From the IMG/VR virus record IMGVR_UViG_3300046171_000155: 64,000 nucleotides of DNA, one strand, 5' to 3'. How positions within the stretch are numbered: the first letter of the stretch is position 1; each line of letters opens with the position of its first letter. Origin of the DNA: a virus. Both the position numbers and the translations under genes were made by a program. Positions 23,710-35,575 of this stretch are shown one piece after another. Under the pieces are notes generated by a model. It was not told the DNA's origin. It worked only from the letters and a program-made list of their open reading frames with translations, and made no database searches.

Positions 23710-24060
23710 TTACCTCGTTACAGAAGGGTTGACTTTTATCTTACCTTCTAGTATTCTTTCTATGATAGTATGTCCGTCTTCATCAACGAAACTGATTTCA
23801 ACATCATAGACATATCTACCACGAGTGGATAGTGTATCGGTTTGTAGGTTTGTTAGGGATATTGTGACGATTCCCTCTAAAGAGGGAGTGGGTATTACAG
23901 CAGTAAAGTCAACTGACTCTGCACTTCTGTAGGTCTTTTTCATTTTAGCTGCAGCAGAGTAACCAGTGAGATCTTTCTTTGATCCATCTGGGTTCACTAA
24001 CTCTATCTGTAGAGCTAGGTCCGCACCCTGATCAATTGTGAAATCTTCGTAAGTTGCCAT
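23710..24060 (-). CDS. Small virion adaptor protein (BppU-N-like beta fold)
   Basis: MATYEDFTIDQGAD...DLTGYSAAAKMKK...GRYVYDVEI...RILEGKIKVNPSVT; a conserved marine T4-like structural family. Confidence 0.7.
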   Translation of the reverse strand: MATYEDFTIDQGADLALQIELVNPDGSKKDLTGYSAAAKMKKTYRSAESVDFTAVIPTPSLEGIVTISLTNLQTDTLSTRGRYVYDVEISFVDEDGHTIIERILEGKIKVNPSVTR

Positions 24061-24072
24061 TCTGCTCAAACC

Positions 24073-24128: not shown

Positions 24129-24836
24129 TTATTCTGCAGAGATATCTTCTAGAACCATCTCACGGAAAGAATCAGACGCATCTGACCAATCGAAGATGTA
24201 AGATACTGTTACACGCCATGAGTCTTCAGAAGAAGCTGCGTGGTAAAGTACTTTATCTGGTTCGCCATACGGACCAAAGTAAGCAGCTTTACAAGTCCAC
24301 TTACCTACTTCGTCTTGACAACGAACAACTTCTTTTGTCTCTGGGTGAACATACTCGAAGTAACCGTCACCACCTTCTGAATAAGAGAAGATTAGGTTAT
24401 ATCCTGGCGCATTAGCGTTGTTGTGCCATGAGATAAATCCGCCTGGAGGGTAGATTGCGCACAGTGCATTATGCTTAGTGGATAAAAAATTCATCATACG
24501 GTCGTTTAGGTCACCTAGCTGGTGTGTTAGGTCTCTTTTGAAGATTGGATCTGCGCCCTCAGAGAAGATTTTGTGGTTCTTATCTGCAGTCTTTAAATTG
24601 TATCCTACCATCTCATCTGGAAATCCTTCGTGATTGATACCTTCACGTACGATTTCATCTTTATAACCATGACCAACGTAGTAAGGACGTTGACGCATAG
24701 CTTGAGCAGATGTCAAATGGCAGTTTTCTTCAAAGCCCTGCAATGTATGCACTTTGGCATATTCGTTTAGAATCTCAAGCAGTTCTGGGTTATTAACTGG
24801 AACATGCTTAAGATATTGGTCATTTACCTGTGTCAT
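24129..24836 (-). CDS. 2OG-Fe(II) oxygenase-like / cupin-fold protein
   Basis: IYPPGGFISWHNN...LYHAA...RVTVSY matches the YxxGxxxxxHxD...H...RxS pattern, but with HxN. Confidence 0.6.
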   Translation of the reverse strand: MTQVNDQYLKHVPVNNPELLEILNEYAKVHTLQGFEENCHLTSAQAMRQRPYYVGHGYKDEIVREGINHEGFPDEMVGYNLKTADKNHKIFSEGADPIFKRDLTHQLGDLNDRMMNFLSTKHNALCAIYPPGGFISWHNNANAPGYNLIFSYSEGGDGYFEYVHPETKEVVRCQDEVGKWTCKAAYFGPYGEPDKVLYHAASSEDSWRVTVSYIFDWSDASDSFREMVLEDISAE

Positions 24837-25570
24837 AAGATTGGTGTATCCTTATTTAAACCTGCAGAGAAGTGACGAATAATCACTGGTCCTGTTTCAG
24901 GTTTTGTGATCGCCCAGTTAAGAGCGTTATAATAGTTCCATCTCAAGTCGTCATCAAAGATACCGACTTTGAGATCCTTATACTTTTCTTCTTTCTCGGT
25001 CAACCACCAGAGTGAGAACTGATCCCAAGATTTGAGACTGTCTGCATACCCTTCTGGCCACCAAGAGTCATTCATTTGTCTGAATGTCAAGTCCCACCAA
25101 TCATCCATGAACTCACGTACAATCGGTTTGGACATATCATATAAACATACTGCTCCACACAATACAAACTTTGATACACCTTCCGGAGTGTCAAAGTCAC
25201 GTTCTGCATATATGTAGTCACGGTCATCTGTCAAAGCAGTAAAGACCACATCATGGTCCTTCATTTCATCCCATACTTTGACGATGTCTTCATGCTCTAC
25301 TTCCATATCAGCATCAATATACATCGTTAGGTCATACGGCGATTTCGCCATACCCCATAACTTAGCGCGGTAGTGATCGTCACATAAGAGAATATCGTCT
25401 GCGACATCTCGACCACGGTCATCAAGGAATCGTTCCTCAGTCACCAAACAGATCTTGCATTCCTCTTCTGGTTCATAGTAGTCCCGAAGAGACTCTGCAA
25501 GATTGATTGCGTACAAATAAAAGTTGCGTTTCTTAGACGCAACAATAATAAAACCTTTACTCTTTTCCAT
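24833..25570 (-). CDS. Glycosyltransferase (GT-A fold, GT8-like / nucleotide-diphospho-sugar transferase)
   Basis: KL.GM..SPYDLTMYIDADM (DxD), GAV.LY, DQFSL, RWNY, VIIRHF. Confidence 0.75.
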   Translation of the reverse strand: MEKSKGFIIVASKKRNFYLYAINLAESLRDYYEPEEECKICLVTEERFLDDRGRDVADDILLCDDHYRAKLWGMAKSPYDLTMYIDADMEVEHEDIVKVWDEMKDHDVVFTALTDDRDYIYAERDFDTPEGVSKFVLCGAVCLYDMSKPIVREFMDDWWDLTFRQMNDSWWPEGYADSLKSWDQFSLWWLTEKEEKYKDLKVGIFDDDLRWNYYNALNWAITKPETGPVIIRHFSAGLNKDTPIL

Positions 25571-26018
25571 CTGTCTCGGCCTCTAGTTGTTCTTGCAGAA
25601 TCATAATTGAGTACATATCTACTTCAATCTTTGACTTTGCCCGACGCAGTTTAGCCTTCAACTTGCGGTTCTTAGAGTTCTTAATCTCTTCAACCTCAAA
25701 CGCTTCTAGTTTGTAGTTGAACAGTTTTTCTAGTTTACGTGCCTTTTGGTGTTCTAAGTCACGTTGTTTTTCTTCTTCAGCTTCTGCCTTCTTACGAACA
25801 ACACGATCTTCAGTTTCTTTATTAATCGATTCTTCGCCTAGAGCATCAACTACTTCATTAAACAGTTCGTTCTCACTACCATCTTTGTTGTGACGTAATA
25901 AAAACATTTGCTGTCGTGTAACACGACCCACATCATCTTCAAGTTCTAAAATACAGTTGAGTTCTTTTTTCTCTTCTGTTTCCCAGAACGCATTATCCAT
26001 CCATTGCTTACGACTCAT
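25557..26018 (-). CDS. Hypothetical charged, partly coiled-coil protein
   Basis: 153-aa ORF with a GGAG ribosome-binding site; overlaps the glycosyltransferase start. Confidence 0.6.
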   Translation of the reverse strand: MSRKQWMDNAFWETEEKKELNCILELEDDVGRVTRQQMFLLRHNKDGSENELFNEVVDALGEESINKETEDRVVRKKAEAEEEKQRDLEHQKARKLEKLFNYKLEAFEVEEIKNSKNRKLKAKLRRAKSKIEVDMYSIMILQEQLEAETDGKE

Positions 26019-26108: not shown

Positions 26109-29100
26109 TTATGCAACCCTTGCGTATAGAGTATACGTCTCGACCACATTAGTTAGTGAGTCAGAGATTGTTGCACCTACGTAGTTACCTAGGAACGATC
26201 GTGCGTAGTTACCTACGAAGTCACGGTTATAGTTTCCTTCGAATCCACGAGTATAGTTACCAGTGAAGTCACCTACGTATGTTGAAACACGATTACGTGA
26301 GTAAGCACCTGAGTAAGCAGATGTTCTGATACGTGCGTATGCAGATACGCGGACACGAGAGTAGTTACCTACAAAGTCACGAGAGTAAGTACCAGTGTAC
26401 TCACCTACGAAACCACGGTTGTAGTTACCTACATAGTTCCCTGCGAAGTCACGCGAGTAAGCACCTGTGTATTCACCAACGAATCCACGAGCATAGTTAC
26501 CTACATAATCACCAGCAAATCCGCGAGTGTATGCACCAGTGTATTCACCAGCGAATCCACGTGAGTAAGCACCTGTGTACTCACCTACGAAACCACGGTT
26601 ATAGTTTCCTACGAAGTCTCCGACAAAGTCACGAGCATATGCACCAGTGTACTCACCTGCAAACGTTCTTGCGTAGTTACCTACGAAGTCGCCGGCAAAT
26701 TGACGTGTGTACTGACCTGAGAAAGTACGCGCATAGTTACCAGTGAATGTTGTGTTATACGTACCAGCATATTCACCAACGAAACCTCTTGCGTAGTTAC
26801 CAGTATAGTCACCAGCGAAGTTACGGTTGTAAGTGCCAGAGTAAGCACCAGTGTACTCACCTACGAATCCACGAGAGTAAGCACCAGTGTACTGACCAGA
26901 GAATCCACGAGAGTAGTTACCCACATAGTTTCCACCGAAGTTACGTGCATAGTTACCTACATAGTTACCAGCGAAGTCCCCAACGAAATCACCGACGAAG
27001 TTGCCAGCGAAGTTGCGTGAGTAGTTGCCAGTAAATGTGCGAGAATAGTTACCAGTAAAGTCACCTGCAAAGTTAGTCACACGATCACGAGTGTATGCAG
27101 AAGAACGGTTGCGGACATATGCAGATACACGAGTTCGTGCGTATGCAGAGTAACGAGTGCGTGTTGATGTGCGAGTGTACTCACCAGTAAAGTTACCAGC
27201 AAAGTCACCTGCGAATCCACGCGCGTAGTTACCAACAAAGTCACCGACAAAGTCGCGAGCATAGTTGCCGCTGAAGTTACCTTCGAAGTTAGTTACACGA
27301 TCACGAGTAAAGTCACCAACATAGTTGGTTACACGAGTACGAGCATATGCTATTAGCATAGGTTGCGGTGAAAAGACCTGAGTCCTGTTACGAGTGTATT
27401 CGCCTACGAAGTCGCCTGCATAGGACCCAGTACGTGTGTAGTTACCAGTATTCGTGTATACTGCAGTGCGGTCACGAGTGAATGCACGAGCGTAGTTACC
27501 AGTGTAGTACAATGTACGAGTGTAGTAACCAGTGTTTGTAGAAGTACGTGTAGAAGTACGCGCATAGTTACCTGTATAAGATGCAGCGCGTGTACGAGAG
27601 TAGTTACCCACAAAGTTACCAGCGTAGTTAGTTACACGAGTACGACCGTAGTTACCAGTATAGTTACCTGCGCGAGTACGACCGTAGTTACCTACGAAGT
27701 TTCCAGTATAACCAGTTGCACGAGTTCGTGTGTATGCAGATGCACGATTACGCGTAAAGTTACGCGAGTAAGCGCCTGAGAAGTACTGGGTTCTCGTATA
27801 TGCAGATGCACGATTACGCGTAAAGTTACGCGAGTAAGCGCCTGAGTAGTACTGGTTTCTCGTATAGTTACCTGTATAGTTGCCAGCGTAAGAAAAATTA
27901 TTGTTATAAGAGAACGCATTTTGGGTAATTGAATAAAACACCTGTTGTCCAAGAGCGCTCTGATATGTACCACGCGACCAACTCATTCCGTTACTATTCG
28001 ATAGTGTTGATGCACCTGCGGTACCGATTGCTCTACTAAATCCGTTCCAATAAGCAAAAGCCATATAAGATTCATAATCAATTTCCCAATAAGTGCTATA
28101 TGCAACATATGTTGGTCCCTGTGCAGCCACACTTACTGTTGAGGTTCTAGTAGATGTTCGAGTGGAAGTTCTCGTAAAGGTTCCTACGCGACTATAATCT
28201 CCACCGTATGCACGTGAGTAGTTACCAGCAAAGTTGCGTGAATAAGATGCTGTGCGACTATAATCTCCACCGTATGCGCGTGAATAGTTGCCTGTAAAGT
28301 TACGTGAATAGTTACCTGCGAAGTTTCCAGTATAACCAGTTGCACGAGTTCGAGAATAGTTACCTGCATATGAGAATGCGCGGTTACGTGAGTAGTTACC
28401 AGCGAAGTTGCCTTCAAAGTTAGTAACGCGATCACGAGAGTAGTTACCTACATATGATGCAGCACGGTTACGAGTATAGTTACCTACGAAGTCACCTGCG
28501 TAGTATAGAGTACGAGTATATGATGGCGTAGTTGCATATGCGGCAGAATAGTTACGAGCATAGTTGCCTACGAAGTTACCAGTGTAGTACAATGTACGCG
28601 TATAGTTCAATGTACGAGTTGAAGTACGTGTTGAAGTACGCGCATAGTTACCAGTAAAGTCACCAGTGTAGTTGCCAGCATAGTTACGAGCATAGTTTCC
28701 TACGAAATCGCCAGTAAATGTAGTTGCATAGTTACCTACAAAGTTTCCGGCATAGTTAGTAACACGTAGTCGGGTAAAGTTGCCGACATAGTTAGTAACG
28801 CGTGTACGAGCATAAGCACTGTAACGAGTACGAGTAGATGTACGAGTTGAAACACGAGCATAGTTACCGACATAGTTGCCAGCAAAACCACGTGAGTAGT
28901 TACCTACAAAGTTACGTGCATAGTTGCCTTGGAAAGAACGCGAGTAGTTTCCTACGAAGTTACCAGCAAAGTTGGTTACACGGTTACGAGTATATGTTGA
29001 TACACGTGCACGAGAATAAACACCAGCAAAGTTGGTTACACGATCACGAGTGTAGTTAGTTACACGGGTGCGTGTGTAATCTGCAGAGTATGCAGAGACG

Positions 29101-30650
29101 CGTGTACGAGTTGAGGTACGAGCATACGCAGAAACACGGTTACGCGAGTAAGTTCCCGCATAAGCAGAAACACGGTTACGTGAGTAAGTGCCTGAGTAAG
29201 TACCTGTGTATGATGAAACGCGTGTGCGAGTATAGTTTGCAGAGTATGAAGAACTGCGTGTACGCGAGTAAGTACCTGCGTATGAAGAGACACGACCACG
29301 AGTGTACGAAGATGCACGACTACGTGAGAATGTTCCGGTGAAGTTAGTCACACGGTTACGAGTGTATGTTGATACACGTGCACGGTTATAAGTTCCTGCG
29401 AAGTAACCAGTAAATGCGGTCAATCGGTTACGAGTATATGATGAAACTCTTGTGCGAGCATATGTGCCCGAGTACGCAGAAGTACGAGTTCGCGAATAAG
29501 TTCCTGAGTAAGCAGAAACGCGAGTACGACCGTAGTTGTCTGAGTAAGACGAATTACGAGTACGCGAGTAAGTACCAGTGTATGAAGATACGCGAGTACG
29601 ACCATAGTCAGCAGCATATGCTGAACTGCGGTTACGTGAGTAAGTACCGTCATAAGTTGAAGTACGCGTACGAGCATAATTACCTTCAAATCCACGAGTA
29701 TAGTTACCAGTGAAGTCACGCGTATATGCACCAGTGTAATCCCCCACGAAAGTTCGTGAGAAAGTGTTGACACTGTTGCGAGTATATGATGAAATGCGGT
29801 CACGACTATATGCAGAAATACGAGTACGAGCATACGAAGAAACACGGTTACGAGTGTAATCGGTATCTATGATTGTGCGTCGTGAGTTCTCTGCACTACC
29901 ACGAGCATGCCATGTTCCTGGCAAGATAGGTGCACCCTGAGCAGAAGATCTTAACTGATAAGATCCAATTGCGCCTGGGACCGATCGTAATGTCTTAGCT
30001 CGTTGACCTAGAGTAAAAGACATTTGACCGTTGGTCATCTCTTTGAAACCATCAAAGGATGAACCATCATAACAGATGGCGACCGGACGTTCTTCATCAG
30101 GTGCTATGTATGAACCGTCTTTTTGATAAATGTGGTAAGCTGTTGTTGTGCCGTCACCAAGTGTATCGGTGAAGACATTAGAAATAGCAACCTTATAATC
30201 AGGACTTGGTGGAATAGAAGATAGTCTATAAATTCCATTCCATTGGTTTGTTTCCATTGTGCTTAATGCACGAGTTACAAGGAGGTCTAGATCACCATCC
30301 GTCATTTCATAGAAACCCGGATTGTCACCTAGCTCGTAATAACCAACAGGACGTACAAAATTTTCTCCAGACTCATCAGCAGTACCGCCTACTTGCTTTA
30401 GCGTAGTAGTTACGGTGGTACTAGTGATGTTAGATGCAGGGTGTGTTCCTGCCACTTCATTGTAGTATGTATCTACAAATGAACCAATATTAACACCATC
30501 AGTAAGACTGAGGTTGCCTGTGTCACTAGCAGCGGCCGCTGTTAGTGCTTCAGATACGGCATACGCAAGATATTCTTCTTGCGAAGGCGTAAATTCCTGT
30601 AAGTCACCATTAGCATTTTGAATTTTTAGTGGAATACTAGATGTTGACAC
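26109..30650 (-). CDS. Giant tetrapeptide-repeat virion protein A (1513 aa): globular base, two arms of about 570 aa and a central tip domain
   Basis: 4-residue periodicity (xRxR, xSxY, xGxY, xRxF) over about 1150 aa; own late promoter and terminator. Confidence 0.75.
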   Translation of the reverse strand: MSTSSIPLKIQNANGDLQEFTPSQEEYLAYAVSEALTAAAASDTGNLSLTDGVNIGSFVDTYYNEVAGTHPASNITSTTVTTTLKQVGGTADESGENFVRPVGYYELGDNPGFYEMTDGDLDLLVTRALSTMETNQWNGIYRLSSIPPSPDYKVAISNVFTDTLGDGTTTAYHIYQKDGSYIAPDEERPVAICYDGSSFDGFKEMTNGQMSFTLGQRAKTLRSVPGAIGSYQLRSSAQGAPILPGTWHARGSAENSRRTIIDTDYTRNRVSSYARTRISAYSRDRISSYTRNSVNTFSRTFVGDYTGAYTRDFTGNYTRGFEGNYARTRTSTYDGTYSRNRSSAYAADYGRTRVSSYTGTYSRTRNSSYSDNYGRTRVSAYSGTYSRTRTSAYSGTYARTRVSSYTRNRLTAFTGYFAGTYNRARVSTYTRNRVTNFTGTFSRSRASSYTRGRVSSYAGTYSRTRSSSYSANYTRTRVSSYTGTYSGTYSRNRVSAYAGTYSRNRVSAYARTSTRTRVSAYSADYTRTRVTNYTRDRVTNFAGVYSRARVSTYTRNRVTNFAGNFVGNYSRSFQGNYARNFVGNYSRGFAGNYVGNYARVSTRTSTRTRYSAYARTRVTNYVGNFTRLRVTNYAGNFVGNYATTFTGDFVGNYARNYAGNYTGDFTGNYARTSTRTSTRTLNYTRTLYYTGNFVGNYARNYSAAYATTPSYTRTLYYAGDFVGNYTRNRAASYVGNYSRDRVTNFEGNFAGNYSRNRAFSYAGNYSRTRATGYTGNFAGNYSRNFTGNYSRAYGGDYSRTASYSRNFAGNYSRAYGGDYSRVGTFTRTSTRTSTRTSTVSVAAQGPTYVAYSTYWEIDYESYMAFAYWNGFSRAIGTAGASTLSNSNGMSWSRGTYQSALGQQVFYSITQNAFSYNNNFSYAGNYTGNYTRNQYYSGAYSRNFTRNRASAYTRTQYFSGAYSRNFTRNRASAYTRTRATGYTGNFVGNYGRTRAGNYTGNYGRTRVTNYAGNFVGNYSRTRAASYTGNYARTSTRTSTNTGYYTRTLYYTGNYARAFTRDRTAVYTNTGNYTRTGSYAGDFVGEYTRNRTQVFSPQPMLIAYARTRVTNYVGDFTRDRVTNFEGNFSGNYARDFVGDFVGNYARGFAGDFAGNFTGEYTRTSTRTRYSAYARTRVSAYVRNRSSAYTRDRVTNFAGDFTGNYSRTFTGNYSRNFAGNFVGDFVGDFAGNYVGNYARNFGGNYVGNYSRGFSGQYTGAYSRGFVGEYTGAYSGTYNRNFAGDYTGNYARGFVGEYAGTYNTTFTGNYARTFSGQYTRQFAGDFVGNYARTFAGEYTGAYARDFVGDFVGNYNRGFVGEYTGAYSRGFAGEYTGAYTRGFAGDYVGNYARGFVGEYTGAYSRDFAGNYVGNYNRGFVGEYTGTYSRDFVGNYSRVRVSAYARIRTSAYSGAYSRNRVSTYVGDFTGNYTRGFEGNYNRDFVGNYARSFLGNYVGATISDSLTNVVETYTLYARVA

Positions 30651-31261: not shown

Positions 31262-34200
31262 TCACTCAAGTCCAACATTTTCAGAAGTAAATGTTGTAGT
31301 AAATGTTGGGGTGTATGTTGGGGTGAATGTTGGAGTATATGTTGGGGTATATGTTGGTGTTGTAGAATCTGTTGATGTGCTTGACACCTTAGTGACTGTG
31401 TACTCTCCTGAGTTCAACCATTGACTTCCATTGTAGAAACCAATAGTGTATTGTTTTGTTTGTCCTTCTGCAGGTACATCTGAAACAGTAACGGTTTGAG
31501 CACCATTAGCGTTCTGTATAGAGAATGATTGAAGGAGAGTTAAGTTGTTATTATAAATTCGACCTTGAACTGACTGACCCCCTTGCGTATTAAAATCAAA
31601 CTCTACCGTATGTGTCGTCGCGCTATGGTGTACAACATTTTGAGTCGTTGATAAAATAGTGCCGATGTCATTATCATACAAAGTAAATGACTTTGAGTCA
31701 AGTACTCGCACATTAGATGATCCTCTAGGTTCAGACATTAAAGATGCGGTATTGCCTGTTCTCAATTCAGCAACGAATGTTTCTCCTTGCCAACCAATTT
31801 CAGAATCTTCTTGACTTCCTGTTCCAGTGCGTGTATAATTGCCTATGTAGTTTCCTGTATAGCCTCCTACAAATGTTCTCTCGTAAGCACCACCAAATGT
31901 ATTTGCATAGGAGCTAGATCTAGCGCGAGTACTGGTTCTATTATAAGTGCCTTCGTAAGCGCCAGTATATTCACCAACAAACCCTCTACTATAATTTTCT
32001 TCAAAAGGTCTTGTATAATCACGAGAATAATTTCCAGTATATTCACCGGCGTAGTTTCCAGAATAATTACCAGTGTAGTTAGAACCTATTGATCTAGCGA
32101 ACTCAACAGTATAGTTTCCGATGAATGGTGTTAAAAAATCACCTGTATAGTTACCAGCGAAGTTGCCTACATACTCTCCAACATACCCACGTGCATAGTT
32201 TCCAGTGTAATTGCCTACAAGGAAGTCTCTAGTAAAATATCCAGCCCCTTGTGTAACTCTTGTGCGAGTAAATTCTCTGCTATAATTTCCGCCGAAGTTG
32301 CGTGAATAGTTCCCTACGAAGTTTGCAGTATAGTTTCCAAAATAGTTTCTGCTATAATTACCAACAAAGGTGCCAGCAAAATCACCGACATAATCTCCAA
32401 CATACCCACGCGCATATTCACCTACAAACCCAGTACTATAGGACCTAGTATATGCCGAATCACGACTTCTAGAGTAATCTGTTATTCTTGTTCTGTTATA
32501 ATTGCCCGCAAAGTTGCCCACAGAAGTGCGTGAATAGTTCCCCTCAAAAGTAGAAGTTCTTATGAGAATGAAGTTTCTACTATAGTATAACGTTCTAGTG
32601 AAGTTGCGTGAATAGTTGATAGCATAATCTATGGATCTTGTATAATTACCTGTAAAGTTTCCAGCAAACCCTCTTGAATAATTACCTACATAATAAAGGG
32701 TTCTACTATAACTAGAGGACCTTACTCTAGCATACCCATCATGCGGAACCTCATATTCTATAGGATCACCATTTATATCAGTCTCAGGTAATGTAGATAT
32801 TCTGGTAGATGCATAGTATCCAGTTCCAGTTCTTGTGCGAGTGTATCCACGAATAAAGTCCCTCGCATAGTTAAAGTCTCGCGAGTAAGTGCCTGTAAAC
32901 GGAGCAGTAAATTCACTGGAATATGTCGCGCCGTTGGTAAATGATTGAGTACGATCCCTAGTAAAATTACGCGTATATTCAGTAGTTGTTCCAGTAGGGG
33001 CCGCGGTAGAACTTGTGGTTCCTTGACCAACTTCATAATACTTGGTGCCACCTATTGTAGCGATTAAATCACCTCTCCAGTAATAAATGTTATCGTTACC
33101 TTTTAACTTAGTTGGGCCGTTGCCATAATCCCGCGTGTCATTAAGTACTTTCGTTGTTCCGTTCCATTTAATATTGGTGACATGTACTGTGATCGAAAAC
33201 CCTTCGGAATTACTAGTATTAGTATCAACTGAGAAGAAAGTGTTGTTTGCAGTGTAAAAATATCCATCGCCAATGGTACGTGTATATCCACGAGAATAGT
33301 TACCAGTAAAAGTACTAATTCTTCCTGCTGCAGCGAAGTCGCCAACATAGTTGCCTGTGTAAGTGCCTTCGTAACCAACAGTTCTCGTAAAGTTGCGTGT
33401 GAATCCACGAGAATAGTTTCCTATATAATATAAGGTTCTTGTAGAGTCGGCTGGGAAATAAACTCCAGTAAATTCTCCGACATAAGAACCGACTGTTGTT
33501 CTGGTGCGACTATAGGCAGAATATCGCGTACGGGTAGATGTGCGAGTAAATTCTACTGCTGGGTTTACATAATTCCCAAGATAATTTCTAGCGTATGACC
33601 CCACCCTAGTATAGTCACCAGCATAGTTACCAGTGTAACTTGCGCTAGTCGTTCTCGCATAATCACCTACAAAATTCGTAACTCTGGTTCGCCCGTAGTT
33701 GCCAACAAAGTTCCCAGTAAAAGTTGCAGTATATGTACTAGAGTAATACTCGTTACGAGTCACGCCTCTAGTGCGACTATATGTAGAGTAACGTGTGCGA
33801 CTATATGTTACCGTACTTGGCATTCTAAAATAATACGCAACATCACCAGTGGGAAAGTCTCTAGAGTACTCTTGTGGTCCAGTTAATATAGCATTTCTTG
33901 TAAACTCTCTAGCGTAATATGCTGTATAGGATACAGTACGATCTCTGGTATACGCAGAAACTCTCGACCTTGTATAGTTTCTACTGTAGTAGCCAATATA
34001 TGATGCACCATAACTACGAGCATACGATGAAGTTCGGGTAGCTTGTCTGCTTCGGTTGTAGGTAGAGTAACGTGTACGACTATATGTCACCGTACTTGGC
34101 ATTCTAAAATAATACGCAACATCACCATTGGGAAGGTTTCTAGAGTACTCTTGTATTTCAGTTAATGTAGAATTTCTTGTGAAGTTTCCTGTGTAGGTCC

Positions 34201-35575
34201 CCAAGAACTCTCTAGAGTAATTCGTAGTATCTGTTCTGCTGTATCCCGCTACAAATGCAGAGGTTCTGGTTCTTGAATATGTCGCAGAAAAAGATCGCGC
34301 GTACCCTTCAACTCTTGTTCTATCATAAGTACTTGTTCTTGTTCGAGCGTATGCTCCAGAATACTCTCCGGTATATTCTCCAACATAATTACGAGCAAAA
34401 TCTCTTGAGAACGACCCTGCTACACTTCGAGAGTATGAAGATATTCTATTTCTTGAATATGTGCCTATGTAATCAGCAACATTGGTATATGAGACTGATC
34501 TCGATGAGGTGGGAGAAGTTGTTGTGAAGGTTGCGCTTTTAGTATCACCAAAGAAAGCTACTCTGTCCGACCCTAAGTCGTTCCCAGAACCAGAAGTTTG
34601 AAACACTCGAACATGATATGCACCTTCTTCAGAAGTATTCGCATTGAATGTAATAGAACTTCCTTCTGTAATTGCAGATCCTGATTGATATGTCAGAGAT
34701 CCAGTAGCGTTTTGATCTCCGGAACCGTCACCATCTGAGTCAACATCACCGCCACCACCAGGAGGTTCATAGGTACCAGACCCACCAGTTCTCAAGGTTG
34801 CGCCTAGAAGACTGCCTGTAGGATAAACTTTGAGTCTCTGGTCGCCATTTTGTAAATCCACAATAGCATCATAAGCTGAAGCTAATGTGCTACCAACCCT
34901 TAGACCAAAAAAGTCCGATCCGTGTGAGTTTTGAGCAGACCATTCAATATTTACATATTCGTTCGTATCTTTGGTCATTACATACGAGCTAGATTCTGTC
35001 CCTACTTCATTACTAAGAAGAGGTGGTAACCATGAAACGATATCAAAGTTAAAGTTTGTTCCTAATGCGCGACTATCAAACGCGACTTCTCCATAGCTTG
35101 TGACAATTCGCAGACCTCGGTCTATACTAGTATCATAACGGCTTGGGTCGGCCATAATGGTAGATGCTTTTCTGACAACAAAATAATCAAACTCTGTTTG
35201 CCAGTCATCATAAACTGCGAGTTTCCAATTTTCAAATTGTCCGTCTATTTGAGGGGTGTATGCTTCTATGCCTGTTCCAGTAAAGGTTACCGTTTCCCCA
35301 GAGACATTCATTTTGTGAAGATAAGGTGTATCAAAAGTGACCGTCATGATATCATCTGAAGGCACTTGAATATCAACAGAACTCCAGTCACCGCCACCAG
35401 GCGCGCTAGGGTTCTTAACAAATATCATATCACTTTCTAATAGACCGCCTGGAAGTGTGAACGAGTGTGCACGACCAGCATCTGTGACAATCAGATTAAG
35501 AATGTCCAGTTCTGTGTCCGATACAGTAAATGTTCCACCGGCATCATTGCCTATTATCTTTAATCCATATGACAT
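31262..35575 (-). CDS. Giant tetrapeptide-repeat virion protein B (1437 aa); repeat arms inserted within a Calx-beta/Ig-like domain
   Basis: MSYGL N-terminal domain; same xRxR/xGxY/xRxF units as protein A; C-terminal TPTY repeats. Confidence 0.72.
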   Translation of the reverse strand: MSYGLKIIGNDAGGTFTVSDTELDILNLIVTDAGRAHSFTLPGGLLESDMIFVKNPSAPGGGDWSSVDIQVPSDDIMTVTFDTPYLHKMNVSGETVTFTGTGIEAYTPQIDGQFENWKLAVYDDWQTEFDYFVVRKASTIMADPSRYDTSIDRGLRIVTSYGEVAFDSRALGTNFNFDIVSWLPPLLSNEVGTESSSYVMTKDTNEYVNIEWSAQNSHGSDFFGLRVGSTLASAYDAIVDLQNGDQRLKVYPTGSLLGATLRTGGSGTYEPPGGGGDVDSDGDGSGDQNATGSLTYQSGSAITEGSSITFNANTSEEGAYHVRVFQTSGSGNDLGSDRVAFFGDTKSATFTTTSPTSSRSVSYTNVADYIGTYSRNRISSYSRSVAGSFSRDFARNYVGEYTGEYSGAYARTRTSTYDRTRVEGYARSFSATYSRTRTSAFVAGYSRTDTTNYSREFLGTYTGNFTRNSTLTEIQEYSRNLPNGDVAYYFRMPSTVTYSRTRYSTYNRSRQATRTSSYARSYGASYIGYYSRNYTRSRVSAYTRDRTVSYTAYYAREFTRNAILTGPQEYSRDFPTGDVAYYFRMPSTVTYSRTRYSTYSRTRGVTRNEYYSSTYTATFTGNFVGNYGRTRVTNFVGDYARTTSASYTGNYAGDYTRVGSYARNYLGNYVNPAVEFTRTSTRTRYSAYSRTRTTVGSYVGEFTGVYFPADSTRTLYYIGNYSRGFTRNFTRTVGYEGTYTGNYVGDFAAAGRISTFTGNYSRGYTRTIGDGYFYTANNTFFSVDTNTSNSEGFSITVHVTNIKWNGTTKVLNDTRDYGNGPTKLKGNDNIYYWRGDLIATIGGTKYYEVGQGTTSSTAAPTGTTTEYTRNFTRDRTQSFTNGATYSSEFTAPFTGTYSRDFNYARDFIRGYTRTRTGTGYYASTRISTLPETDINGDPIEYEVPHDGYARVRSSSYSRTLYYVGNYSRGFAGNFTGNYTRSIDYAINYSRNFTRTLYYSRNFILIRTSTFEGNYSRTSVGNFAGNYNRTRITDYSRSRDSAYTRSYSTGFVGEYARGYVGDYVGDFAGTFVGNYSRNYFGNYTANFVGNYSRNFGGNYSREFTRTRVTQGAGYFTRDFLVGNYTGNYARGYVGEYVGNFAGNYTGDFLTPFIGNYTVEFARSIGSNYTGNYSGNYAGEYTGNYSRDYTRPFEENYSRGFVGEYTGAYEGTYNRTSTRARSSSYANTFGGAYERTFVGGYTGNYIGNYTRTGTGSQEDSEIGWQGETFVAELRTGNTASLMSEPRGSSNVRVLDSKSFTLYDNDIGTILSTTQNVVHHSATTHTVEFDFNTQGGQSVQGRIYNNNLTLLQSFSIQNANGAQTVTVSDVPAEGQTKQYTIGFYNGSQWLNSGEYTVTKVSSTSTDSTTPTYTPTYTPTFTPTYTPTFTTTFTSENVGLE

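Follow-up and report, generated by a model that had tools for sequence, protein, structure and literature searches.

Protein A is encoded on the minus strand of a 64,000-nucleotide stretch of viral DNA (IMG/VR record IMGVR_UViG_3300046171_000155; this whole stretch is referred to as the window), and contains two repeat arms that are complementary to each other when the N-terminal arm is read forward and the C-terminal arm backward. This mirror relation is real, and it is stronger than was claimed in an earlier sequence-only reading of the window. We consider it probable (about 0.8) that protein A forms a fibre by folding back on itself as an antiparallel beta hairpin, with a code that locks the register of the strands and a distal tip that can be exchanged. 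The mirror complementarity, the matched lengths of the arms, the compensatory changes between them, and the lack of a DNA inverted repeat together require selection for physical antiparallel pairing of the arms. Mirror complementarity at the protein level cannot arise by descent. The hairpin-fibre reading is also supported by the position of the gene in a structural module that encodes baseplate wedge, sheath, and tail-fibre proteins, with a fibre assembly chaperone gene upstream.

In the proposed structure, the N-terminal domain and the last 23 residues of protein A would form one base domain, which is conserved and presumably attached to the virion. The chain would leave the base as a beta strand of 573 residues, and continue into an ~80-residue hypervariable knob at the turn, most likely the distal tip that contacts the receptor. 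It would then return as a 572-residue antiparallel strand, hydrogen-bonded to the outgoing one. The even positions of the repeat units would lie on one face of this ribbon and form two kinds of rung, and the other face would carry pairs of small or polar residues. The length of the fibre would evolve through matched duplications at mirror positions, and host range would probably change by the swapping of tip cassettes through recombination within the arms. The mirror complementarity, the equal lengths of the arms, their co-evolution, and the anchoring of the register are observed, and we infer the beta conformation, the intramolecular pairing, the location in the virion, and the function of the tip. 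The sequence-only reading proposed a filament of up to about 190 nm; this figure is an upper bound for protein A (573 × 0.33 nm). The same sum gives upper bounds of ~70 nm for a homologue with 204-residue arms (L016) and ~220 nm for one with 670-residue arms (L022).

Anatomy of protein A

The protein A gene can be divided into the following parts; coordinates are those of the window and residues (aa, amino acids) are those of protein A.

26109..30650, minus strand: protein A gene, 1513 aa, GTG start (list of open reading frames and translation)
29856..30650, minus strand: conserved N-terminal base domain, aa 1-265 (homologue matches and AlphaFold2 model of homologue L016)
28137..29855, minus strand: N-arm, aa 266-838, ~141 units, mostly of 4 residues, some of 6
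27897..28136, minus strand: hypervariable tip island without repeats, aa 839-918, marking the centre of symmetry
26181..27896, minus strand: C-arm, aa 919-1490, mirror-complementary to the N-arm
26109..26180, minus strand: C-terminal tail, aa 1491-1513, ending in TYTLYARVA, and stop codon (family-wide conservation)
28176..28307, minus strand: two tandem copies of a 22-aa segment of the N-arm, aa 782-803 and 804-825 (read from the protein)
27732..27863, minus strand: two tandem copies of a 22-aa (66-bp) segment of the C-arm, aa 930-951 and 952-973, differing in sequence from the N-arm duplication

The GTG start of protein A matches the N-termini of its homologues. The arm coordinates given earlier (28140-29865 and 26185-27900) are correct to within a few bases, and the near-equal arms flanking a non-repetitive island, also described earlier, are borne out, with 573 and 572 residues in the arms and 80 in the island. 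The alphabet of the arms is very small and consists of T, R, Y, S, N, G, A, V, F, and D. Glycine accounts for 9-15% of the residues, threonine for 12-16%, and tyrosine for 13-14%; leucine and isoleucine together occur 12 times in 1145 residues. Neither arm contains any lysine, histidine, cysteine, or tryptophan, in agreement with the earlier statement that histidine-iron sites are absent from the arms (0 histidines in 1145 residues), and the net charge of the arms is +108.

Position 4 of the four-residue units is occupied by tyrosine, phenylalanine, or arginine, position 2 by arginine, glycine, serine, or threonine, and positions 1 and 3 by small or polar residues. As read from the units, this alternation is the pattern expected for a two-faced beta strand. 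The odd face contains the small residues valine, alanine, threonine, and serine together with asparagine and aspartate, and the composition of each face shows that neither is a classical hydrophobic core. The exposed arginine, tyrosine, serine, and glycine chemistry resembles that of minimalist antibody binding surfaces, and by this analogy the shaft formed by the arms may be adhesive in itself.

The arms share a single mirror register

The N-arm was read forward and the C-arm backward, and the region close to the base, in which the frame of the units is clean, was cut into 98 units per arm. The 98 unit pairs contain no insertions or deletions. The mutual information between unit classes is 0.77 bit at mirror shift 0, 0.12 ± 0.08 at other antiparallel shifts, and 0.42 at the best parallel shift. 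The three simplest pairing rules are obeyed by 79% of the unit pairs at the mirror register and by 45 ± 8% at other shifts. The 21 exceptions are themselves regular: x(T/A/D)x(Y/F) stands opposite xGx(Y/F), and is often followed by xGxF opposite xRxF. When the rule xTN(F/Y) opposite xG(D/N)F and the GY/RF pair that follows it are added, 97 of the 98 pairs fit five rules, by our count from the unit table. The rules of the sequence-only reading are better expressed per residue than per tetrapeptide.

At the level of residues, mutual information is highest at i + j = 1755, where it reaches 1.354, compared with 0.975 ± 0.029 and a maximum of 1.058 for 500 unit shuffles. The complementarity of the arms, scored at other shifts and against shuffled units, is register-specific. 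Side peaks occur at odd sums only (1753 and 1757), which indicates that paired residues share a strand face, as in a beta ladder. Mutual information calculated over the whole arms was misled by the period-4 phase until the calculation was limited to clean-frame regions.

The tip-proximal third of the arms was scored with a matrix trained on the base region only, and i + j = 1754 is the sole positive ungapped register among the 157 tested. Six-residue units lie opposite six-residue units in this part of the protein, as in TRTLNY/TRTGSY and SRTASY/TRTQYF. A single register of ~573 pairs (i + j = 1755, then 1754) connects the base to the tip, and confirms that the units stay in antiparallel register across the arms; its sole offset, of one residue, is located at SPQPM (aa 1094-1098). 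A count that requires no training gives 0 Arg-Arg and 0 Arg-Tyr pairs at the true register, and 4-25 Arg-Arg pairs at every other even shift beyond ±2, out to ±48. DNA inverted repeats, considered as a possible source of the symmetry, were rejected, as none were found; the symmetry exists at the protein level only.

Residue pairing code

The rungs formed by position 2 are R-G, S-R, G-R, G-G, T-G, and R-S. Residues in these pairs are strongly complementary in size: the standard deviation of their summed volumes is 46, compared with 71 ± 3.6 for shuffled pairs, and 0 of 2000 shuffles gave a value as low. Position 4 forms Y-Y or R-F rungs. Counted over the whole arms, there are 67 R-G, 45 R-F, 27 R-S, and 59 Y-Y rungs, versus 4 R-Y and 3 R-R rungs, with 10 R-R expected by chance. 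The prevalence of R-F and Y-Y over R-Y implies that the choice between phenylalanine and tyrosine depends on a partner 900-1200 residues distant in the sequence. On the opposite face, valine, threonine, alanine, or serine is matched with asparagine, aspartate, or threonine.

Unit types follow one another aperiodically, and the occasional six-residue units are mirrored. Because of this aperiodicity, slips of at least 4 residues create many Arg-Arg clashes, and in our reading the code acts as a register lock. The 22-residue duplications in the N- and C-arms are positioned exactly opposite each other (782 + 973 = 804 + 951 = 1755), and the C-arm duplication is also detected in the DNA by Tandem Repeats Finder (period 66, 2.0 copies, 97% matches at 27733-27866). 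Protein A contains in addition a pair of 28-residue duplications, the mirror positions of which overlap approximately.

Homologues and co-evolution of the arms

Searches with the N-terminal domain identified 29 IMG/VR loci. These yielded 20 complete open reading frames of 850-2101 aa, with 19 distinct sequences among them. In 1.84 billion metagenomic proteins, HMMER found the domain in 326 clusters (50% identity) at E ≤ 1e-3. Among the best 150 matches listed, the N-domain match mostly begins within the first few residues, and a few proteins carry the domain internally. The only phage in GenBank with the domain is Phage C48C1 (OQ984149).

The length of the arms ranges from 204 to 670 residues across 20 distinct proteins, and the N- and C-arms of any one protein match in length exactly or almost exactly. 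They are exactly equal in 18 of the 20 rows of the self-mirror alignment, in which protein A is included; the unequal arms differ by 1-4 residues (579/580 in the window protein and 514/518 in L020). The self-mirror alignment of L024/L025 is gapped (895/914). The longest ungapped mirror blocks comprise 670 pairs in L022, 609 in L005, 596 in L004, and 204 in L016. In 15 of 15 lineages the register follows the relation K = L + pos(GTW) - 3 (or -2), and it is thus set by the last strand of the N-domain and the C-terminus rather than fitted. At this anchored register, Arg-Arg pairs number 0-2 in the 19 other homologue rows, compared with medians of 6-23 at other shifts.

N-arms were also paired with C-arms of other homologues at the anchored register. 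Cognate arms score on average 0.94 bit per residue and non-cognate arms 0.32. The scores are ~1 bit per residue for cognate or same-clade pairs and about -0.3 to 0.5 for cross-clade pairs, with ~6 groups. The lack of complementarity between arms of different clades indicates that the arms co-evolved.

The homologue from IMGVR_UViG_3300017782_000206 (L002) is near-identical to protein A but has a different tip cassette. It contains 8 additional residues in the N-arm and an insert of about 8 residues in the C-arm near the mirror position. The two proteins differ almost only in the tip island and in the stretches of both arms next to it (aa ~706-1000 of protein A); from the sequences, this looks like an exchange of tip cassettes through recombination within the arms. 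Beyond the cassette, two scattered substitutions are located at directly paired positions: L-S to T-V at 628/1127, and N-E to D-A at 632/1123. The tips of 15 homologues align with few conserved residues only (Trp, Gly, and Tyr-x-Gly), which indicates that they are homologous but hypervariable. The insert that joins the arms is compact across the homologues (61-170 aa).

Phage C48C1 also encodes a homologue of protein A.

L001:5138-15181, minus strand: homologue of protein A from Phage C48C1 (OQ984149), 3347 aa, arms of ~1030 aa, five globular domains

Scored by gapped dynamic programming with a matrix trained on protein A, the mirror alignment of the C48C1 homologue reaches 615, compared with 56 ± 12 after unit shuffling, 246 ± 21 after shuffling in 12-mer blocks, and 70 for the parallel alignment. 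Dynamic programming with shuffle controls was used instead of 32-residue windowed anti-diagonal matches, which were in excess because of the repeats. The mirror blocks are consecutive along the N-arm and skip the five globular inserts, all of which are in the C-arm. Judged from its arm length, a C48C1 ribbon would be up to ~340 nm long. A segment of ~80 residues is present twice in tandem around aa 2009-2168, which may reflect a true duplication or an error of assembly.

These comparisons bear on the explanation that the arms make no contact, that is, that they form a local parallel beta-solenoid or a disordered sticky region, with the code a by-product of two periodic arrays. The arms do have strong periodicities of 4, 8, and 12 residues, offsets that are in phase give 45-67% compliance with the rules, local 32-residue matches are many, and structure predictors built no hairpin. 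Nevertheless, the register-specific peak exceeds all in-phase shifts, and the six-residue units that shift the frame are mirrored. Shuffling in 12-mer blocks removes most of the C48C1 score, the arms are matched in length in 20 distinct proteins, and non-cognate arms lack complementarity. Parallel beta-solenoids, such as pentapeptide repeats and the helices of autotransporter passengers, are built by local contacts, from which no mirror register is expected, whereas protein A has a register peak. Since periodicity alone predicts none of these signals, a local solenoid without contact between the arms is effectively excluded, and we regard this whole explanation as highly improbable.

A metagenomic homologue of 1798 aa (P0002, incomplete) has its N-domain split by an insert of ~650 residues with FG-GAP-like and LamG-like domains (PF14312 and PF13385), which indicates that the base domain tolerates large inserted modules. 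The proteins P0003-P0021 and P0022-P0162 share the N-domain and a tail of the form TYTLYVR(I/V)x. Most of them use other four-residue dialects, for example NYTKAYTS... and QFAGVRTFSGPR..., and they often contain large central non-repeat regions.

Structure prediction and the base domain

The 850-residue homologue L016 was modelled with AlphaFold2 from a 31-row alignment. The N-domain has a predicted local distance difference test score (pLDDT) of mostly 80-96, and the C-terminal tail of 83-95. The model contains two confident long strands, 249-274 and 820-848, with residue sums of 1094-1097, compared with 1094 for the register derived from the sequence. The C-terminal tail belongs to a long strand, numbered as expected if it pairs in register with the last N-domain strand.

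The N-domain has weak structural matches. The best VIA-align hits (8b6v, Z 6.7; 2qp2, Z 6.4; 3tow, Z 5.7) cover ~110-120 residues with a root-mean-square deviation of 3.6-3.7, and are beta-prism-like (MABP / MACPF C-terminal domain), but Z values under ~8 are common for unrelated folds. Foldseek found no match in BFVD at E ≤ 0.001, and ESM Atlas features retrieved unnamed viral clusters only (0.78-0.79). Neither the whole of protein A nor its N-domain has a match among all PDB chains by phmmer at E ≤ 1. Pfam has no family for any part of protein A, and the sole match in PHROGs is phrog_15773, of unknown function, to the repeat residues 342-443 (E 3.8e-6). No description of such a fibre was found in open-access papers and bioRxiv, and the architecture appears to be undescribed.

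Several points weigh against the interpretation of protein A as a hairpin fibre. The beta conformation is deduced from the period-2 and period-4 patterns and from the composition. The direct register of 1755 is not rigorously separable from its diagonal neighbours 1753 and 1757. No confident model of the arms was obtained: AlphaFold2 gave a pLDDT of ~25 for the L016 arms, its model of a protein A tip construct (aa 770-985, single sequence) has a pLDDT of 36 and is uninformative, and ESMFold2 likewise produced no usable arm model. The matrix used for dynamic programming was trained on protein A; this concern is eased by the training-free count of Arg-Arg pairs, by the register predicted a priori from the conserved anchors, and by the scoring of the tip-proximal third with base-trained values. 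Mirror tests in distant members with xxxY dialects (aromatic autocorrelation, a 160-residue mutual information scan, pooled mutual information, and overlap of aromatics in cognate versus non-cognate arms) are underpowered, and do not single out protein A itself; in these low-power tests, the distant P0009 and P0015 have their peaks close to where the anchors place the register.

The central proposal of the sequence-only reading, an antiparallel fold-back hairpin in one register with the non-repetitive island at the turn, is supported by the arm lengths, the anchors, the cognate pairing, the mirrored insertions and deletions, the C48C1 homologue, and the base strands of the L016 model; the needle or beta-barrel would be one possible arrangement of such hairpins.

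Genomic context

The window corresponds to the structural module of an uncultured marine T4-like myophage, with genes for a gp6-like baseplate wedge subunit, a baseplate-wedge/tail-fibre connector, the tail sheath, the large terminase, and several tail-fibre-like proteins. The tail sheath shares 68% identity with its counterpart in Phage C48C1, which is filed under Kyanoviridae, ~42% with those of Methylophilales Melnitz phages, and ~39% with those of Sinorhizobium phiM12-like phages and Pelagibacter phage Mosig. A tail-fibre assembly chaperone (PF16778, E 5e-18) is encoded immediately upstream of the protein A gene. The other neighbouring genes considered here are as follows.

31262-35575, minus strand: protein B, 1437 aa, a large protein upstream of protein A with mirror-complementary repeat arms
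25557-26018, minus strand: first of four small genes (open reading frames) directly downstream of protein A
24833-25570, minus strand: second small downstream gene
24129-24836, minus strand: third small downstream gene
23710-24069, minus strand: fourth small downstream gene

The arms of protein B span roughly aa 366-747 and 962-1210, with an island at ~776-875. Its mirror score by dynamic programming is 78, compared with 23 ± 3 after unit shuffling, 36 ± 8 after 12-mer shuffling, and 31 for the parallel alignment. Protein B has many more insertions, deletions, and side inserts than protein A, and it matches no Pfam or PHROG family. The readings of protein B as a split Calx-beta protein and of a neighbouring gene as a 2OG oxygenase were rejected, as they have no support in Pfam.

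The four downstream genes occur in the same order in Phage C48C1, and a DNA match of ~80% identity covers part of the 24-36 kb query. The 245-residue downstream product has a sub-threshold match to GT2 only (PF00535, E 0.032). The 119-residue product has a weak LtfC-like match, below the Pfam cut-off (PF23926, E 6e-4), and its C48C1 counterpart is annotated as L-shaped tail fibre assembly. The products of the four genes may help to assemble or modify the hairpin fibre.

Oligomeric state of the proposed fibre

Each hairpin could stand alone or associate with others. One possibility, which we rate as a whole somewhat below even odds, is that protein A stands free as a monomer, a beta ribbon of two strands without a hydrophobic core and nearly 0.2 micrometres in length, in which the register is held by a compact code that evolves like an RNA stem, through compensatory substitutions and matched insertions and deletions. 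Alternatively, three hairpins could form a six-stranded needle or prism, a long histidine-free analogue of the tip of T4 gp37, in which the three-fold axis would bury one face of each ribbon. Homotrimers are by far the usual form of phage fibres, and the genes for the chaperone upstream (PF16778) and the weak LtfC-like protein downstream would suit such a bundle; the small residues of the odd face could fit the inside of a narrow core along the axis, where cations might also be bound. However, the confident model of the N-domain is that of an independent, beta-rich monomer completed by the C-terminal strand of its own chain, neither face of the arms is a classical hydrophobic core, the arm charge of +108 per chain would triple in a thin bundle, and the chaperone gene may serve the 1437-residue fibre encoded upstream instead. 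A three-copy prediction of the tip hairpin (15-row alignment) gave no answer (score 0.00) and speaks neither for nor against a trimer. The three-hairpin bundle is a possible but somewhat doubtful arrangement, and between the two we have a slight preference for the lone ribbon.

Pairing could also occur in trans. The N-arm of one chain would then bind the C-arm of another in an antiparallel domain-swapped dimer or polymer, and the result would be a filament of double length or a network, with islands in the middle of the filament. Equal arm lengths and a common register are needed here as well, and the sequence tests do not separate cis from trans. Nonetheless, the arms are joined by a compact insert of 61-170 residues, which strongly favours pairing in cis. 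The N-domain and C-terminal tail of one chain form confident strands consistent with a single domain in the monomer model, and the hypervariable, cassette-like island fits a distal tip rather than the middle of a filament. We therefore consider pairing in trans improbable, and favour a hairpin formed within one chain.

Comparison with known fibres and hairpins

The nearest functional relative of protein A is the T4 gp37 needle (PDB: 2XGF), whose topology it resembles. Each gp37 chain reaches a small head that binds the receptor and comes back antiparallel, the N- and C-terminal flanks lie at the same end, and the variable tip is at the turn. The single mirror register of protein A and the base strands of L016 agree with a fold-back topology of this type. 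The gp37 needle is reportedly an intertwined trimer held together by His-x-His iron sites, with a length of roughly 15 nm and arms of some tens of residues. Unlike gp37, protein A has arms of ~573 residues without histidine and an explicit mirror pairing code, and the two proteins have no sequence similarity.

The fold-back coiled coils of SMC and Rad50 proteins are the nearest analogue in topology, as their N- and C-terminal segments form the base, their antiparallel arms are very long, and a small domain is located at the turn. Arm lengths and irregularities must match between the arms of these proteins. SMC and Rad50 are DNA-acting ATPases with alpha-helical arms and heptad periodicity, whereas the arms of protein A lack the composition of heptad-based helices and have a period of 4, with an aromatic residue or arginine at every fourth position. 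Their richness in glycine, threonine, tyrosine, and arginine suits beta strands, and the gene is located among those for virion structure. The likeness is one of analogy, not homology.

If the ribbon of protein A stands alone, it would need two precedents at once: a sheet without a core and stabilization by aromatic pairs. The G5-E repeats of SasG from Staphylococcus and the central sheet of OspA from Borrelia are thin beta sheets that are exposed on both faces and stable without a hydrophobic core, and cross-strand aromatic pairs stabilize tryptophan-zipper hairpins. Those proteins differ from protein A in being built from many consecutive short hairpins or three-stranded units, or in being peptides of ~12 residues; no single hairpin among them has arms of hundreds of residues, and they have no long-range register code. 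Conceptually, protein A shares with RNA and DNA stem-loops a small pairing alphabet, compensatory changes, matched insertions and deletions, and a functional element in the loop. In protein A, however, the complementarity is that of side chains, steric and cation-pi, across a beta ladder, and the rules are degenerate.

Implications

If the hairpin interpretation is correct, protein A is a protein analogue of a nucleic-acid hairpin, in which a long-range code that can be read from the sequence fixes the register of the strands. It would be a natural programmable code for beta pairing, and a natural rule set for register-specific pairing of beta strands, a long-standing difficulty in protein design. 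The fibre would add a new architecture to the triple beta-helix, beta-spiral, coiled-coil, and collagen-like phage fibres, and would represent a new class of ultra-thin viral tethers of tunable length. We estimate that a single chain would reach about 0.17 nm per residue, and a trimeric fibre far less. The arms also expose a blind spot of structure prediction, since AlphaFold2 and ESMFold2 fail on them despite the overwhelming signal in the sequence, and a gap in annotation, as the family of 326 clusters (50% identity) is unannotated in Pfam and PHROGs. For marine phages, such a fibre would mean that its length could be tuned by matched duplications, and its receptor-binding tips swapped.

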